Virus record (IMG/VR): IMGVR_UViG_2778261167_000009
Strand: one strand, 5' to 3'
Length of the DNA stretch: 11,902 nucleotides
Origin: a virus
Taxonomy: Duplodnaviria > Heunggongvirae > Uroviricota > Caudoviricetes
Below the pieces are notes generated by a model. It did not search any database and was not told where the DNA came from. It was given only the letters and a program-made list of their open reading frames with translations. A program made the position numbers and the translations under genes. How positions within the stretch are numbered: the stretch's first letter is position 1; each line of letters opens with the position of its first letter. This document shows positions 6,543 through 11,902 of the stretch, in pieces.

Positions 6543-7049
6543 ATGAATTTAAGCGCAATGGTATACCCTGATACTTTCATAATTAATGGCGAATCATTCA
6601 GAGGTAAAAGAAACGCAAAAGAAAACAAGGTATTAATTCCATATACAAATGAACCGGAAGTAACTATTGGTCAACACATTATCCAGCGTGTCGGTAAAAA
6701 CGAGATAAATCTAAAAATTATAGATATGAAGTTGCTTCCCAATGGAACCCTCAGACAGGGAACCAATCATCCAAATATGTTGACTCTCTATATTGAAAAT
6801 ATCACGGGAAATGAACATATGACGCCAACTAAAAGTAATACATTTAACATTGGTTCAATTAGTGGTGATCAAGTGCAGATAGGTGAGCATAACCATATGC
6901 TGGTAAACATCAGCATCACTGAACTGGTTGAAAAAGTCGCTAAATCGGGGGATGTACAAGCCAAATCAGTATTAAAGCAGTTACTGGAAAACAGTACCGT
7001 TGCCAGCATTGTTGGGGCTGGCGCAAGTGCCCTAATAGGCTTACTGTAA
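6543..7049 (+). CDS. Hypothetical 168-aa protein, AT-rich cargo/moron gene; unrecognised N-terminal domain and C-terminal hydrophobic glycine-zipper-like tail
   Basis: The only long plus-strand ORF in the core, opposite to all flanking genes and visibly more AT-rich. Good RBS and its own promoter and terminator. Translation ends ...ENSTVASIVGAGASALIGLL. No family recognised. Confidence 0.7.
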   Translation: MNLSAMVYPDTFIINGESFRGKRNAKENKVLIPYTNEPEVTIGQHIIQRVGKNEINLKIIDMKLLPNGTLRQGTNHPNMLTLYIENITGNEHMTPTKSNTFNIGSISGDQVQIGEHNHMLVNISITELVEKVAKSGDVQAKSVLKQLLENSTVASIVGAGASALIGLL

Positions 7050-7051
7050 AA

Positions 7052-7086
7052 AAATGGCCTGGATTTTACCAGGCCTTTATTATTTT
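7052..7086. terminator. Bidirectional rho-independent terminator between convergent genes
   Basis: Stem GGCCTGG (7056-7062), loop ATTTTA, stem CCAGGCC (7069-7075), flanked by an A-run upstream and TTTATTATTTT downstream, so a U-tract follows the hairpin on both strands. Stop codons of the 6543-7049 gene and the 7085-7333 gene abut it. Confidence 0.6.
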
Positions 7087-7333
7087 ACCGTTTCACGGGA
7101 TCGCGCATTCTGCGCCTTATTTTCCACAGATATTCGATCATTGCTTCCACCTGCTCACGGTTGGTTGCGAAAATTTCCCCGGTCAGTGAGCTACGCAGAA
7201 AATCATGATGATCCACAAAAAACAACGCATCGGAAGAAAGCAGACGGCGATATTTTTTTGCTGTCATGGTTTCCAGATCATCAAAATCATGAAACTTTTT
7301 ATGTTGCTGGACTTCTTCAAATGTCACTGGCAT
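7085..7333 (-). CDS. Hypothetical 82-aa protein
   Basis: Translation from the ATG at 7331-7333 (MPVTFEEVQQHKKFHDFDDLETMTAKKYRRLL...), preceded by RBS AGAGGGG. The ORF-track extension to 7381 would overlap the SSB gene. No family recognised. Confidence 0.55.
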   Translation of the reverse strand: MPVTFEEVQQHKKFHDFDDLETMTAKKYRRLLSSDALFFVDHHDFLRSSLTGEIFATNREQVEAMIEYLWKIRRRMRDPVKR

Positions 7334-7349
7334 GTCCCCTCTGTTGTCG

Positions 7350-7775
7350 CTAAAACGGTATGTTGTCCCCGTACGGATCATCGTGCTGACCCGTCTGCTG
7401 TTTTGCCCTGTTCAGTGCGTCAGTCGCCTGGCTCTGCTGGCCTTTTTTGCCGTCCGGTCGCACCGTTCGCGCACTGATTACGCTGTCTGCGATAACCTGC
7501 CAGCCTTGCCGCGTTTCGCCGTTCTGGCCTGTCCACTGGCTTACCTGCATGTTACCCACCACGCTCACCAGTTCGCCTTTGTGGTGTTTTGCCAGTGCAT
7601 CGGCCTGTCTGCCAAACGCCAGAACAGAAAGCCACATCGTCACCGCACCATCATCAGCCTGACTGCATGGCAGGGGGACCGCCATACTTACCATCGCCAT
7701 TTGTGTACCCTTGCTGGTGGTCTTTAACTGTGGGTCATTTGTCAGCCGCCCGTAAGCGGCTATCTGTGCTGTCAT
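7350..7775 (-). CDS. ssb: Single-stranded DNA-binding protein (SSB-like OB-fold) with acidic C-terminal tip ...DNIPF
   Basis: 141-aa translation aligns by eye with bacterial SSB (IAAYGRLTNDPQLKTT..., WLSVLAFGRQADALAKHHKGELVSVVGNMQVSQWT...G..R) and ends DDPYGDNIPF, like the host SSB tip DDDIPF. Strong RBS GGAGGG; ATGA overlap with the upstream ORF. Confidence 0.8.
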   Translation of the reverse strand: MTAQIAAYGRLTNDPQLKTTSKGTQMAMVSMAVPLPCSQADDGAVTMWLSVLAFGRQADALAKHHKGELVSVVGNMQVSQWTGQNGETRQGWQVIADSVISARTVRPDGKKGQQSQATDALNRAKQQTGQHDDPYGDNIPF

Positions 7776-8017
7776 GATTCCATCCCTCCGGTGTTAACGT
7801 TGATGGTTGTCACCTGTTCCGCTTCGGCAATCTCCCGCTCTATCAGCGTGGCAAAATTTGCCGCCGCCGTGGTCATGAATGCGCTTATCAGTTCGGAATG
7901 TGCTTTCGCGTATCCTTCCCCGGCGTTGCGGTCGATGATTTTTATCGACACCCTTAACCAGTGTTCCGTCAAATCAAGGGCGTGCGATTGTGATTTTTTT
8001 GTGTGCTTCGCTGTCAC
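7772..8017 (-). CDS. Hypothetical 81-aa protein (GTG start), between ori and ssb
   Basis: ORF starts with GTG at 8015-8017 and has a weak SD. Its TGA overlaps the ssb ATG. No family recognised; could be shorter or non-coding. Confidence 0.35.
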   Translation of the reverse strand: MTAKHTKKSQSHALDLTEHWLRVSIKIIDRNAGEGYAKAHSELISAFMTTAAANFATLIEREIAEAEQVTTINVNTGGMES

Positions 8018-8314: not shown

Positions 8315-10132
8315 TTAATTTTTGCTATCGTCATTAGTGACCGATACACATGATGGCATCCAGTCTTCTGATTCCTCCGTCAGTGTCACGTTTGAACGCA
8401 AACCGTGCTTCGTTTTCCGTTTCATATACTCCCTGCCATATTCCGCCATTGCCCCCGGCATATCTTTACCGAAGCGCGTCAGTGTTACAGGTTTACCAAA
8501 CCCATGTGCCCTCATATAAGCCAGATAGGCATGATAGAGATACCTGCGTGGGCTGAATGGCACAATTTCAGCATTACCCACTAACAGGCCATCACACATT
8601 ACCGACGCCATGAGATAGCCGCAGAAGTCCACCAGCGAATCCCCCTCTCGCTTTATCGCCAGTGCTTCTTCAGATTTCTGCTGCTCATATAACAGGCGTC
8701 TGGCTTCGTCCTGGTCAGCAAACCGTGTAAGCAGATGGCGAATCACTACCGCCAGCTCACCTTCTATTTTTTCCGCCAGCATTGGATCACGTTCGTTCTC
8801 CGGTACAACTTCCGAAAAATTGAATATCACCCGACGACGTGAGATCCCCCCGCTGCGGTCACTGAATGACATGGCGTTATTGTTAACCGCCAGCACTACT
8901 GCCGGAATACGTGTTGAGTAGGGGGCTTTGTGTTTCGGGTCAATTGCCACCTTGTCACCGCCTGTAATAGCCTTAATCCCTGCCCCATCACCAGCGTAGC
9001 GGGTCATATCCGGCATGATAATCAGCGAAAAGCCAACCACTAACGCGCGTTCCCTTGCATCTTCCAGCGCCTTCATGCTTGCCGATACTGTGTTGGCCTT
9101 ACCCGCCAGCATGGTGCAAATCTCCGCCATCACGCTTTTACCACTTCCCCCTGGACCTGTTACCTCAATGAATAACTGCCAGTCGTACCGGTTCGCCAGC
9201 ACCATGAATAATGCAGCCAGTACGCGATCCGCCTTGCGGTCATTCTCAGCCACCGAACGGCGTAACCACTTCCAGAAATTCGGCGCATGTGTTGCCAGCG
9301 TTTCCCCCTCTGCTGGTGGGCTGAAAGGTAATTCACTGGCAATTAACAACCAGTCGTTTTTGTTATGCTCCCGAAAATTACCTGTTCTGGTATCAAATAC
9401 CCCGTTACTGAATCCAATCAGGTTACGGGCTGTATTCCCCATTACAGGCAAACTTAACTTCATGGTATCGACCGCTGATTTAATAGCGTTCTGTGAATAG
9501 CTGATCTCCGCATCAATGAAAATCTGCGCCATAGCACGCTGTAACTCTTTATCCTGAACCGGCTCCCATACAACGCCGTTGTAATGGTGAACAGTGTCAG
9601 AGTCAGCATGAATCGCCAGTTCACCACCATAATGTGCCAGGAGAACTTCGCCGCGTTGACTTGCTCCCATCTGGTTAAGCGCCAGTGATGAAGCGTTATC
9701 GTCTTTTACCCGCTCTTTTTTCTTTACAGGCAGTTCAACTACCTTTTTCTTTTCCGCCAGCTCTCCCCGCTCACGCTCCAGATATTCGCGCCAGTTCTCC
9801 CGTTTCTGGCTGTGCATTCCTTCAGGGTAATAATCAGCATCCCTGACACCTGCCGCTGCCAGTTTCTGCCCGATGGTATTAACAAGCACCGGACGCAATA
9901 ACCCCGCCTGATAGAGACGCACGCGATAGCGTCCGTCCGGTACGATTTGCAGGTTGTCCAGTTCGGCAAGTTGTTGCTCTCCAAGCCAGACAGGTGGCAC
10001 GTTATCGCCTGCCAGTCGCCCGTCCTGTTCCTGCCACTGCTTCGCATGTGCCCACGCATCACTACCCGCAAAAATGATGACTTCCGTCATTTTGTCACGC
10101 GGCTGGTGTTTTAAATTTGGCGCTTTTTTCAT
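8315..10132 (-). CDS. Replication protein: P4 alpha-like primase/helicase (D5-N-like domain plus SF3-type P-loop NTPase)
   Basis: About 605 aa from the ATG at 10130-10132 (MKKAPNL...) with RBS GGAGAGAG. Walker A VTGPGGSGKS, Walker B-like LIIMPD, and a D5-N-like central region (NLIGFSNGVFDTRTGNFREH). The ATG overlaps the upstream ORF stop (ATGA). The ORF-track start at 10147 is GTG. Confidence 0.9.
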   Translation of the reverse strand: MKKAPNLKHQPRDKMTEVIIFAGSDAWAHAKQWQEQDGRLAGDNVPPVWLGEQQLAELDNLQIVPDGRYRVRLYQAGLLRPVLVNTIGQKLAAAGVRDADYYPEGMHSQKRENWREYLERERGELAEKKKVVELPVKKKERVKDDNASSLALNQMGASQRGEVLLAHYGGELAIHADSDTVHHYNGVVWEPVQDKELQRAMAQIFIDAEISYSQNAIKSAVDTMKLSLPVMGNTARNLIGFSNGVFDTRTGNFREHNKNDWLLIASELPFSPPAEGETLATHAPNFWKWLRRSVAENDRKADRVLAALFMVLANRYDWQLFIEVTGPGGSGKSVMAEICTMLAGKANTVSASMKALEDARERALVVGFSLIIMPDMTRYAGDGAGIKAITGGDKVAIDPKHKAPYSTRIPAVVLAVNNNAMSFSDRSGGISRRRVIFNFSEVVPENERDPMLAEKIEGELAVVIRHLLTRFADQDEARRLLYEQQKSEEALAIKREGDSLVDFCGYLMASVMCDGLLVGNAEIVPFSPRRYLYHAYLAYMRAHGFGKPVTLTRFGKDMPGAMAEYGREYMKRKTKHGLRSNVTLTEESEDWMPSCVSVTNDDSKN

Positions 10133-10428
10133 TTCTGCTCTCTCCACGCGGCAATCATGTTTTTCAGTTCCTGTAGTTTTTTATCCACATCCACACGTGA
10201 CACATGGTTATTTCTGGAAGGCGGTATTTCCCGCCGGAATCTGCAAATAAAGATCTCCACGTTCAGCGAGCTATGAAATGAATAGCCATCACGAATAAAG
10301 TACACACGGTCAAACATTATCGATTTTACTGTTACTCTGTTGCCGTTCTTATCCCGATAAATAGCGCCGGGGATAATTTTGGGATGTGCATAACCGCTGG
10401 CAGTCAAGCCAGATAAATACGTTCTCAT
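10129..10428 (-). CDS. Hypothetical 99-aa protein, translationally coupled to the primase/helicase
   Basis: Complete ORF with ATG at 10426-10428 and RBS GGGGA; TGA overlaps the primase ATG. No family recognised. Confidence 0.6.
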   Translation of the reverse strand: MRTYLSGLTASGYAHPKIIPGAIYRDKNGNRVTVKSIMFDRVYFIRDGYSFHSSLNVEIFICRFRREIPPSRNNHVSRVDVDKKLQELKNMIAAWREQK

Positions 10429-10434
10429 GATTAT

Positions 10435-10755
10435 TTATCCCCGATTTGAATCAGTATTCGCTTTCTTTATGGCATTTAATGCATCTGTGGCATTTTCAAT
10501 GGTGCACCGTAACGAAATATCAAAATGTCCAAGCATTGCCAGTAACAAACCGATATTACCCATATCAATGCGCATGGCCTTTTCGTCATATTCCTCATTT
10601 TCTGACGCATGCCACATCAGGCTACCAATTGACGCAACAGCCATTGATATATTGTCAGTAGCCCCATCCGCAGCGGAATAAACCTTTTTAGCAATATCAT
10701 GCTCACAGTTAAAATGCGGATTAATCAGGTACTGGTAATTTGACATATCAGGCAT
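10435..10755 (-). CDS. Hypothetical 106-aa protein
   Basis: Complete ORF with ATG at 10753-10755 and RBS AGGGGG; AT-rich. No family recognised. Confidence 0.6.
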   Translation of the reverse strand: MPDMSNYQYLINPHFNCEHDIAKKVYSAADGATDNISMAVASIGSLMWHASENEEYDEKAMRIDMGNIGLLLAMLGHFDISLRCTIENATDALNAIKKANTDSNRG

Positions 10756-10951
10756 GGCACACCCCCTGACGAATACGGGCGGCGAATACCATCACGCAGC
10801 CAGCCGGGGATTGCTGGCGTGCTTCCTGTTCGCTGGTGGCCACGATGTGAATCACGCGCGGTTGTGCCGTGCTCAGGGCGATAAAACGCCAGATGAATTT
10901 ATTCAGGTTGTGCGAGTCCCGCCCTTGCGGGTGTGTGGTATGATTTAACAT
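10748..10951 (-). CDS. Candidate 67-aa first gene of the leftward operon
   Basis: This is the C-terminal in-frame part of the spurious 306-aa ORF. ATG at 10949-10951 is preceded by GAGGT; stop at 10748-10750 overlaps the next gene start. Translation MLNHTTHPQGRDSHNLNKFIWRFIALSTAQPRVIHIVATSEQEARQQ... is plausible but unrecognised. Confidence 0.35.
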   Translation of the reverse strand: MLNHTTHPQGRDSHNLNKFIWRFIALSTAQPRVIHIVATSEQEARQQSPAGCVMVFAARIRQGVCHA

Positions 10952-11047
10952 AGCTACCTCGATACTTCTGCTATCGTTGGTGGTTAGAAGCCCGGTTAGT
11001 GTTAGCGCACTGCCGGGTTTCGTCGTTTCTGCACCTTGCATCAACAA

Positions 11048-11100
11048 GGTGTTAAACACCAATTTAAGCCTAGGTGTTAAACACGTCAAGTGTTGAACAC
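11048..11100. promoter_or_regulatory. Three palindromic operator-like sites overlapping a putative promoter for the plus-strand small-gene module
   Basis: GGTGTTAAACACC (11048-11060), GGTGTTAAACACG (11073-11085), GTGTTGAACAC (11090-11100). The last overlaps a -35-like TTGAAC (11093-11098), with 17-bp spacer and -10-like CATACT (11116-11121). GGTTAG direct repeats lie upstream (10982, 10994, 11000). Confidence 0.45.
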
Positions 11101-11150
11101 TTATTTTTTTTCCTGCATACTGCATTTGTTTTTTGTAAGGAGTACACAAC

Positions 11151-11330
11151 ATGGCGACAAAAGCAGTAAACGCAAAATCACAAACAGTTGCGGCAAGGGT
11201 TCCGCATGAAGTTATGAACAATGTTGAGGCGGTAAAAATGCCTGGTGAAAGTACAGGGCAGTTTGTAACAGCAGCATTAAAGCGAGAAGTTGAATACCGC
11301 CAGCATCGCAAGGCCAAAGAGCAGGAGTAA
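11151..11330 (+). CDS. Arc/MetJ-like ribbon-helix-helix DNA-binding protein, 59 aa
   Basis: Below the ORF-track size cutoff. Strong RBS AAGGAG (11137-11142) 8 nt before the ATG. Translation MATKAVNAKSQTVAARVPHEVMNNVEAVKMPGESTGQFVTAALKREVEYRQHRKAKEQE has a beta-strand then two helices in the RHH pattern. Confidence 0.6.
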   Translation: MATKAVNAKSQTVAARVPHEVMNNVEAVKMPGESTGQFVTAALKREVEYRQHRKAKEQE

Positions 11331-11387
11331 CCATCACCAGCGCCGTGGTGCGGTGAACTGTGGCGCACAGGGTTACAGGTATCTACG

Positions 11388-11567
11388 ATGACTGACAAAT
11401 CATTAAAGAAATTATCCTCATCCAAGAAAAAACAACGCAAAAATGCGGTAAACGAACATGAACCGGAGAGATTCGCACCATGTGCGTTTATCCTTGAGAA
11501 GTACCTTAAAGAGTATTCTAGGAAAATACGCTCATTGCAGGCATGGCAGCGAATCGAGCCAGACTGA
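11388..11567 (+). CDS. Hypothetical small basic protein, 59 aa
   Basis: Below the ORF-track cutoff. ATG at 11388 with weak SD (AGGT); translation MTDKSLKKLSSSKKKQRKNAVNEHEPERFAPCAFILEKYLKEYSRKIRSLQAWQRIEPD. Lies between the RHH gene and the plus-strand terminator. Confidence 0.4.
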   Translation: MTDKSLKKLSSSKKKQRKNAVNEHEPERFAPCAFILEKYLKEYSRKIRSLQAWQRIEPD

Positions 11568-11631
11568 TAGCATTGCCCACTAGCCGACAACCTGGTATTC
11601 TGGATATGCTCAAGTTTAGTGTTATGCCACT

Positions 11632-11660
11632 GGCGACCGCCCCCGGTCGCCTTTGTTTTA
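11632..11660 (+). terminator. Rho-independent terminator ending the plus-strand small-gene module
   Basis: Stem GGCGACCG, loop CCCC, stem CGGTCGCC (11632-11651), followed by TTTGTTTTA. It sits inside the 306-aa minus-strand ORF, arguing that ORF is not real. Confidence 0.6.
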
Positions 11661-11677
11661 TGTGTCATAGCTCCCCC

Positions 11678-11902
11678 CTAGGCTGCCTTACCTGAATTAA
11701 CGCGGTCACGGCTTTGCACCCAGTCCATAACTTCGGAAAGCAACCAGCCTACAGAACGCCCCCCAAGATTACGGCGAGACGGAAAGCCCCCTTTCTTCTC
11801 CAGTTCGTAGCGTGTAGTACGGCTGACGCCTGTTAACTTACGACATTCATCCTCACGAATTACGCGATCTGTTAGTGATTGAAATTGTGTATTTTGATTC
11901 AT
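11678..11902 (-). CDS. alpA: AlpA-family phage regulatory protein (winged-HTH activator/excisionase-like)
   Basis: 74-aa translation (IREDECRKLTGVSRTTRYELEKKGGFPSRRNLGGRSVGWLLSEVMDWVQSR) matches the AlpA pattern. The ATG is at the window edge, so the RBS and any upstream integrase are not visible. Confidence 0.85.
   Translation of the reverse strand: MNQNTQFQSLTDRVIREDECRKLTGVSRTTRYELEKKGGFPSRRNLGGRSVGWLLSEVMDWVQSRDRVNSGKAA

Follow-up and report, generated by a model that had tools for sequence, protein, structure and literature searches.

The small genes ahead of the primase-helicase in an Escherichia coli capsid-forming satellite: a variant of the P4 left operon with a probably gated kil/Icd-like leader

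The subject of this work is a string of three small open reading frames (ORFs) at positions 10129–10951 of a viral DNA stretch of 11,902 nucleotides (IMG/VR record IMGVR_UViG_2778261167_000009, Caudoviricetes; the whole stretch is hereafter called the window), which lead on the minus strand into a primase-helicase gene. Judging by its genes, the window belongs to a capsid-forming phage-inducible chromosomal island (cf-PICI) of Escherichia coli, and it is rather probable that the three ORFs form the promoter-proximal part of the replication operon of this satellite, that is, a gated leader of the type described for P4 and P1, followed by exchangeable cassettes. A preliminary description of this DNA had presented the ORFs as small unknown proteins; the finding is real but more ordinary than that, since named families could be assigned to two of the proteins, and one of these families has a characterised member. 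The layout is a variant of the P4 left operon, a kind already known, and it is new only in its details: a candidate cis-antisense RNA instead of the CI RNA of P4, a widespread eta-like frame that runs over an antisense ylcI gene, and the small family of the 106-aa protein.

The three minus-strand ORFs are present as had been described, at 10748–10951 (67 aa), 10435–10755 (106 aa) and 10129–10428 (99 aa), and the PGAP annotation of the nearest genome gives them the same boundaries. Their ribosome-binding sites (RBSs) are good, with the Shine-Dalgarno (SD)-like motifs GAGG, GGGGG and GGGGA, respectively, and the primase ATG at 10132 is preceded by GGAGAG. Overlapping stop and start codons, which had been attributed to the whole string, are found at the 67/106-aa junction, where 8 nt are shared (ATGCCTGA), but the 106-aa and 99-aa ORFs are separated by a gap of 6 nt; the coupling of the 99-aa ORF to the primase gene by ATGA was correctly noted. 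The richness in AT is likewise a property of part of the string: the GC content is 40.5% in the 106-aa ORF and 43.3% in the 99-aa ORF, against 51.0% in the primase gene, whereas the 67-aa ORF, with 57.8%, lies above the latter. As for the statement that none of the proteins matched a recognised family, the profile searches that had been proposed gave named families for the 67-aa protein (the Icd-like NF033153) and the 99-aa protein (DUF4222, PF13973), and it is only for the 106-aa protein, with nothing beyond phrog_15327, that no named family was obtained.

As judged from their conservation and signals, all three ORFs are real genes and not chance frames. Selection and intactness were surveyed in 77 IMG/VR loci (the close relatives in what follows), where the 106-aa ORF is intact in 77 of 77 (53 alleles; ratio of nonsynonymous to synonymous polymorphism, pN/pS, 0.36) and the 99-aa ORF in 74 of 75 (pN/pS 0.45), while the pN/pS of 0.75 obtained for the 67-aa ORF is unreliable, its alleles being of differing length and not realigned. 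The 106-aa gene is always directly preceded by an Icd-like ORF in these loci and has DUF4222 directly downstream in 75 of the 77. The pairwise ratio of nonsynonymous to synonymous substitution rates (dN/dS) is 0.18–0.26 for DUF4222, 0.19 for the 106-aa ORF in its most divergent pair and 0.06 for the primase gene. The idea that at least one of the three is a chance open frame could appeal to their small sizes and to the absence of a Pfam or NCBIfam match for the 106-aa ORF; against it stand the intactness and the pN/pS below 0.5 of the 106-aa and 99-aa ORFs, length-conserved homologues with 23–40% identity in other genera, a confident structure model for the 106-aa protein, and the RBSs and coupling. 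It has next to no chance of being right and is counted as already refuted.

The 67-aa ORF (10748–10951, minus strand; SD GAGG and start ATG) is the first translated gene after the internal promoter and matches the model NF033153 (phage_ICD_like) over residues 19–62 with 71.4 bits against a cut-off of 25, as well as phrog_6196 (E 2.6e-43). The kil gene of P4, which is located inside the old ‘cI ORF137’, scores 73.9 bits with the same NF033153 model, and on these matches the 67-aa ORF is an Icd-like protein and the counterpart of P4 kil. The latter is an ORF of 65 codons that begins with AGGAGG-N7-ATG at P4 position 8365 and whose stop is overlapped by the GTG of epsilon in GTGCGTAA; the same trait of the Icd family, a kil stop overlapped by the start of the next gene, is found in the window (ATGCCTGA). 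In the P4 ‘cI gene product (AA 1-137)’ the Icd-like match occupies the C-terminal 48 residues, and it is because the Icd-like region of P4 sits in this old ‘cI’ ORF that the PHROGs matched by the 67-aa ORF carry the label ‘transcriptional repressor’. A search of the PDB with the Icd profile gave no match. Kil of P4 has been termed ‘the lethal gene’ in the literature and expression of icd of P1 inhibits cell division or kills the cell; by analogy, the 67-aa product is probably toxic or division-inhibiting, and the first gene would be better read as the regulated leader of the operon and a toxin than as an accessory protein.

A comparison of 22 loci revealed a constant layout, in which an Icd-like ORF is followed by a start overlapping its stop, by small genes and by a replication protein. 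Besides the window, P4 and Sp7, the set comprised three loci from metagenomes and 16 from species-representative genomes of Enterobacterales. The overlap after the Icd-like ORF is of 8 nt in 18 loci and of 4 or 11 nt in the other four, and a GGAGG or GGGGG encoded in the Icd C-terminus precedes the start of the next gene. The genes in the middle come from a small pool of families that appear in shuffled combinations: the 106-aa family (10/22), DUF4222 (8/22, usually directly upstream of a D5/P4-type primase) and several others of 50–140 aa. For replication, 16 loci have a D5/P4-type primase, four have an AAA_25 helicase and the rest have a protein of another type. The DUF4222 gene of the window is 93.3% identical to that of the nearest genome (L002), which is 98.7% identical overall and 97.8–100% identical in the flanking genes; this dip suggests a patch of local recombination, and both the drop and the low GC content of the two cassettes fit cassette exchange.

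The 67-aa ORF is not free-standing, and the reading frames show it to be nested in a long frame of the P4 eta type (306 aa; 10748–11668, minus strand), of which it forms the 3' end. The long frame begins with GGGGGGAG-ct-ATG, 10 nt past the alpA stop, and runs for 306 codons from its SD and ATG at 11668, the stops in the three frames numbering 0, 14 and 18. At 10748–11668, RefSeq has the short ORF alone and annotates ylcI on the opposite strand; gene callers predict the long frame as 304–427 aa. Across the 22 loci, the Icd frame is stop-free over 220–400 codons in 14, where either of the other frames contains 8–25 stops, and a strong SD usually precedes the first ATG of the Icd frame; the equivalent frame of P4 is open for 218 codons. 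Of the 71 close relatives that no contig end truncates here, 56 keep the frame open over 130 codons or more, and the remaining 15 close it at about 100 codons. In P4, kil is reportedly the end of a longer ORF, eta, whose translation from an upstream promoter is said to prevent Rho-dependent termination. It should be considered that ylcI overlaps 51–66 codons of the long frame on the other strand, and that synonymous shuffles keep this stretch open in 28–76% of trials per locus; because it is often open in such shuffles, the overlapped stretch alone is no evidence for the frame, and the case for the latter lies in the SD and ATG and in the whole 220–400 codons being open, which chance could not explain.

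Upstream of the kil start there is a candidate cis-antisense RNA (10952–11035, plus strand), which consists of a first hairpin with an anti-SD loop, a second, terminator-like hairpin and a U-rich tail, and which is complementary to the SD and leader of kil. All 17 loci of the lineage share, upstream of the kil start and read opposite kil, two hairpins and then a T-rich tract, and in the window the fold z-score of the region is −4.7. For the 17 loci, RNAalifold gives 21 pairs, 12 of them with compensatory changes, and a covariation score of 0.403 against 0.183 in shuffles (none of 500 shuffles scored as high); in slid controls about 40% of cells are paired. On the antisense strand 95.2% of cells are paired, including 46 G-U pairs, as compared with 82.2% and no G-U pairs on the kil strand, where those 46 cells become A-C mismatches. 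Since the G-U pairs occur on the antisense strand only, the transcribed strand of the RNA is the plus strand of the window. The loop of the first hairpin carries CUCC, complementary to the kil SD, and a −10-like box (TATGAT, TATGCT or TAGACT) is located within kil codons 3–6, about 7 nt from the predicted 5' end of the RNA.

A covariance model of this RNA (R1) scores 77.4 bits in the window (10958–11046, plus strand) and finds loci on which it was not trained, at 76–80 bits (L001, L012, L029 and a second copy in L026) or 38 bits (L028 and L030); the R1 search did not find P4. The SymR family (RF01809) matches the window with 33.6 bits (E 0.003), without reaching its gathering threshold of 61, and three other loci at the same site and strand with 28.7–35.9 bits, also below threshold, so SymR is a working analogue of this RNA and not a family assignment. 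A scan of the window with Rfam by E-value gave symR only, with no C4 (RF01695) or isrK/seqA (RF01394) at E ≤1, and four other loci of the lineage searched at the gathering threshold gave neither C4 nor isrK; P4 and a P4-like locus of E. albertii (L014) carry C4 at 75–78 bits and isrK at 61–62 bits upstream of kil. With its covariation support and its absence from Rfam, the RNA is a candidate new family.

The transcript that runs from kil to the primase gene would be driven by a sigma-70-like promoter recognised by its consensus match (TTGACG-17-TAAATT; 11061–11089, minus strand), and an equivalent TTGAC box is found at the same position in other loci. The palindrome GTGTT(T/C)AACAC occurs three times around it (11047–11100), flanking the −35 box, between the −35 and −10 boxes and at the transcript start, in an operator-like arrangement. 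In other loci these places are taken by repeated palindromes of a different sequence, and such a difference at constant positions suggests element-specific operators and immunity. A divergent gene of the YlcI/YnfO family (59 aa; 11151–11330, plus strand; NF041551 with 59.6 bits against a cut-off of 30) lies antisense inside the eta-like ORF, as ylcI does in most loci, always in the same phase, so that the wobble positions of both genes coincide. The N-terminus of the YlcI-type protein reads like the strand of a ribbon-helix-helix protein, and the protein is possibly a repressor that acts on the palindromic operators.

Two further observations concern the long frame. A second plus-strand ORF (11388–11567, 59 aa, phrog_21027) lies antisense inside it, and what looks like the terminator of that ORF is a GC-rich hairpin at 11632–11651, GGCGACCG-CCCC-CGGTCGCC, with a plus-strand T-run behind it. 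This hairpin accounts for the conserved ‘KTKA’ N-terminus of the long ORFs.

The elements described so far can be joined in a mechanism in which the leader gates the operon. In the quiescent island, the internal promoter (11089–11061) would be held down at its three palindromic operators, and on any transcript that escaped, the antisense RNA would pair with the kil SD hairpin and block the translation of kil, whose RBS is predicted to sit in a small hairpin complementary to the loop of the RNA. With the next ORF starting within the kil stop region and its SD inside the sequence for the kil C-terminus, this block would silence the 106-aa, DUF4222 and primase genes by translational coupling and, probably, Rho polarity. 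Once a helper phage induced alpA, ribosomes on transcripts from upstream would start at the ATG at 11668 and read the whole 306-codon frame, and this translation would bypass the antisense-controlled start, as that of P4 eta reportedly does. The ribosomes would then reach the kil stop despite the antisense RNA, and reinitiation would follow on the 106-aa gene, with DUF4222 and the ATGA-coupled primase gene downstream. The second and third genes would be exchangeable cassettes, the DUF4222 protein being presumably a small regulator of the RgdR family.

Several points weigh against this proposal. The part of the long frame that overlaps ylcI could stay open through constraint on the YlcI protein alone, and about 21% of the close relatives lack the long open frame, therefore an eta-type bypass is not universal. 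The antisense RNA is a prediction, its promoter being represented by a −10-like box, the U-tract of its second hairpin is modest in the window (5 T in 10), and its score of 33.6 is below the SymR gathering score of 61. Finally, the RGD motif on which RgdR depends for activating type III secretion is missing from the DUF4222 protein of the window.

The 106-aa protein (10435–10755, minus strand) is coupled to kil by ATGCCTGA and its sole family match is PHROG 15327 (E 1e-71), which has no assigned function; it had no match in Pfam, NCBIfam, PADLOC, a sequence search of the PDB or a tblastn search of 50,697 phage records. A profile search of 1.84 billion representative proteins gave 21 clusters, with about ten full-length relatives of about 100 aa and 23–40% identity that occur in other genera, and by these searches the family is very small, made up of satellite proteins and that of one prophage. 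AlphaFold2, with the relatives in the alignment, predicts an antiparallel hairpin of two helices (residues 19–51 and 58–104; predicted local distance difference test score, pLDDT, 80.9). A Foldseek comparison of two models with the PDB and BFVD gave nothing below E 0.5; EsxB, occludin, UvsY and TraM (E >0.5) were taken as generic helical hairpins and not read as homology. A relationship with P4 epsilon was likewise discarded, given an hhalign probability of 0.1 and no match to Pfam ‘Derepression’ (PF25738), on which epsilon itself scores 170 bits. The family co-occurs with D5/P4-type primase loci as well as with AAA_25 helicase loci. As found with different replicon types, it most likely has its partner in the host or in a phage, and a helper-sensing role, one of the functions suggested earlier for this position, is plausible. 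A distant member lies just downstream of a CI-type repressor (helix-turn-helix and S24 peptidase) in a lambdoid prophage (L010, 4678–5291), where it is overlapped by a 108-aa ORF of no assigned function; the family is therefore not confined to satellites.

The 99-aa protein (10129–10428, minus strand), ATGA-coupled to the primase, matches DUF4222 (PF13973) with 65.9 bits against a cut-off of 27 and is 32% identical to RgdR (ECs1581) over all 99 residues. RgdR, itself a DUF4222 protein of 99 aa, activates LEE1, in the enterocyte effacement locus (LEE), and lowers motility (PMC3378721; PMC10877973), and it has been described as a pleiotropic transcriptional regulator with weak DNA binding (PMC3378721). 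The RGD at its residues 20–22 is needed for the activation of type III secretion, which a CGD variant did not activate (PMC3378721), and variants from strains without the LEE still affect motility (PMC3378721; PMC10877973). Residues 20–22 of the window protein are P20-G21-A22, and because PGA replaces RGD and identity is 32%, it is considered a member of the RgdR family and not an orthologue. Searches of phages with tblastn gave nothing for it at E ≤0.01, and the DUF4222 profile found no match in the PDB. No anti-phage defence system in PADLOC was matched by any of the small proteins. It was also considered as a homologue of P4 Cnr (DUF5375), and this was rejected for lack of any BLASTP alignment at E ≤100.

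What the two cassettes do can be explained in other ways than by the gated operon alone. They may be replication accessories, DUF4222 and perhaps the 106-aa protein modulating the primase-helicase (its loading, origin binding or copy number) in the manner of Cnr, which is said to act on the alpha protein of P4 and whose gene occupies the equivalent place in that element. DUF4222 is indeed ATGA-coupled to the primase both here and in Sp7, is adjacent to it in 75 of 77 close relatives and, in the 22 loci, occurs only with D5/P4-type primases (8/8). However, this last association is not significant, because 16 of the 22 loci have such a primase, and the 99-aa protein has no similarity to Cnr/DUF5375. 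The order DUF4222, 106-aa gene, primase in one locus (L020), the behaviour of RgdR as a pleiotropic transcriptional regulator with weak DNA binding, and the independence of the 106-aa family from replicon type also speak against replication accessories, which we consider a rather unlikely explanation. A different proposal makes DUF4222 a host-directed regulator, or moron, which like RgdR alters host transcription (LEE/type III secretion, motility) and is irrelevant to the satellite cycle. It draws on RgdR itself, an activator of LEE1 and repressor of motility whose gene has the same position in the prototype O157 cf-PICI (OI-51/Sp7), and it is hard to reconcile with an identity of only 32%, with PGA in the place of RGD when even the CGD variant failed to activate secretion (PMC3378721), and with a tight coupling to the primase that suggests expression only upon induction. 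This proposal is improbable.

The 106-aa protein, in turn, may be directed at the helper or another phage and bind a phage or host protein, with no part in the replication of its own element; it could serve as a sensor, as an interference protein or as an anti-repressor comparable to P4 epsilon. Its gene follows kil immediately and is coupled over 8 nt, an arrangement that it shares with P4 epsilon and P1 ant, its family accompanies unrelated replication proteins and is also found beside a CI-type repressor in the lambdoid prophage, a two-helix hairpin is a typical protein-binding module, and the suppressor hits for cell death triggered by a phage protein in the ECOR61 element included the two small ORFs of this slot. 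Nevertheless, the ECOR61 ORFs are of other families, the protein resembles neither epsilon nor Pfam ‘Derepression’, it has no PADLOC match, no informative structural neighbour and no known partner, and the proposal is thus held only tentatively. The gated-leader reading admits an extension of comparably doubtful standing, according to which cf-PICIs and related enterobacterial satellites would have replaced the CI RNA of P4 with a two-part immunity module, formed by a SymR-like antisense RNA on kil and a divergent YlcI-type repressor on element-specific operators, with the 106-aa protein as a phage- or host-binding effector released when the module opens.

The satellite context of the string, which had also been proposed from the sequence, is borne out by the gene content. 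Over its full length the window shares 98.7% identity with an E. coli island located between thiM and rcnR, all large genes of the window are on the minus strand, and their order is alpA, D5/P4-type primase-helicase, ssb, HK97-type capsid, prohead protease, portal, head-tail connector, HNH endonuclease and the small and large terminase subunits (TerS and TerL); in the 98.7%-identical island a tyrosine integrase is annotated by PGAP just beyond alpA, outside the window. A cf-PICI is an island of about 15 kb that has int, alpA and rep genes and in addition carries capsid, protease, portal, connector and terminase genes of its own (bioRxiv 10.1101/2022.09.08.507074), and this full set is found here, as known from genes alone. 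The alpA gene (11678–11902, minus strand; PF05930 with 58.8 bits), upstream of the operon, belongs to the family of PICI master activators, which are induced by the helper (PMC11773190; bioRxiv 10.1101/2022.09.08.507074). The primase-helicase gene (8315–10132, minus strand, PGAP boundaries; likely start ATG 10132) encodes D5_N, DUF5906 and Pox_D5 domains and matches TIGR01613 below the cut-off of that model. The DNA of the three-ORF stretch is present in 1463 of 5426 complete E. coli genomes.

Other genes of the window and its relatives deserve mention. In related satellites, the Rfam int-alpA RNA motif (RF02996) lies between int and alpA (L016, 2153–2218; L025, 1803–1868), a region outside the window. 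Between the capsid and replication modules, an ORF of 168 aa (6543–7049, plus strand; about 36% GC; phrog_5789, E 1e-85), with no Pfam or PADLOC match, looks like an accessory ‘moron’ gene. The ORFs of 82 and 81 aa that flank ssb, previously described as a similar uncharacterised set, match phrog_1231 and phrog_1957, which have no assigned function. The one upstream of ssb (7772–8017, minus strand; 81 aa) shares 68% identity with ECs1586, its positional counterpart in Sp7, and the one after ssb (7085–7381, minus strand) has 82 aa according to PGAP or 98 aa from its first ATG; the latter was compared with PchE, which has the same position in Sp7, and proved unrelated.

Gram-negative PICIs have been described as activated by AlpA, without an account of how their replication genes are silenced or of the small genes between alpA and the primase, and the kil/icd leader logic of P4 and P1 gives a testable model for both silencing and induction in these elements. 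The same model would account for cassettes between an Icd-like gene and a primase surfacing as loci of phage-triggered cell death. The variable slot of small genes, which includes the RgdR family, associated with virulence gene expression in enterohaemorrhagic E. coli (EHEC), would be a place for factors of satellite-helper or satellite-host interaction.

The closest comparison is with P4, whose left operon has the order vis, eta/kil, epsilon (‘Derepression’), orf151, ORF106/cnr and alpha, the order in the window being alpA, long ORF/kil-like, 106 aa, DUF4222 and primase. In both, a gene of the AlpA/Vis type lies upstream, a longer frame contains a kil/Icd-like ORF of about 65 aa, the next gene starts 8 nt before the kil stop, and a string of small ORFs ends in a D5/P4-type primase-helicase. 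The slot between the first gene of the operon and the primase holds in P4 the helper-derepression gene epsilon, orf151 and cnr, and in the window the unrelated 106-aa family and DUF4222 in their place. The window also differs in having no C4/CI or isrK/seqA RNA but a covarying RNA on the opposite strand in that place, and a YlcI-type gene antisense inside the long frame, beside palindromic operators. The replication operon of P4 is terminated prematurely by the CI RNA (PMC4825925). The immI region of P1 (c4 RNA, icd, ant1/ant2) is similar in that a first gene of the Icd family leads into a downstream effector gene and in that the translation of icd is the target of an RNA regulator, as proposed here for kil. 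It is different in that c4 is a processed RNA of the same strand (Rfam C4) and the downstream gene encodes an antirepressor, whereas the window has a candidate cis-antisense RNA, small cassettes and a primase.

Another comparison is with Sp7 of the Sakai strain (= O-island 51 = EcCIEDL933), where the string consists of an Icd-like ORF of 65 aa, ORFs of 61, 63 and 80 aa, ECs1581 and the primase. As in the case of RgdR, the DUF4222 protein of the window has 99 aa and is encoded directly upstream of the satellite primase with an overlap of 4 nt; the genes from the Icd-like ORF to RgdR are those of 61, 63 and 80 aa in Sp7, in contrast to the single 106-aa gene of the window. The predicted RNA, for its part, resembles the SymE/SymR pair, in which a short two-hairpin RNA lies opposite the 5' end of a toxin-type gene and covers its SD and start, and it differs in its scores (29–36 bits against 61) and in its target, the Icd-like leader of a replication operon and not a protein of the SymE family.

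The prophage-encoded superinfection exclusion system of ECOR61 (Silas et al., bioRxiv 10.1101/2023.04.06.535777) resembles the window in that an Icd-like gene is followed by small ORFs that overlap and by a DNA primase. Cell death requires six linked genes there, the Icd-like protein being the likely effector, and the small ORFs in the slot are needed for the cell death triggered by phage (bioRxiv 10.1101/2023.04.06.535777). Compared by coordinates, the published positions of ECOR61 fit an Sp7-type string of 61-aa and 63-aa ORFs and not the 106-aa family of the window. [quoted passage not shown]

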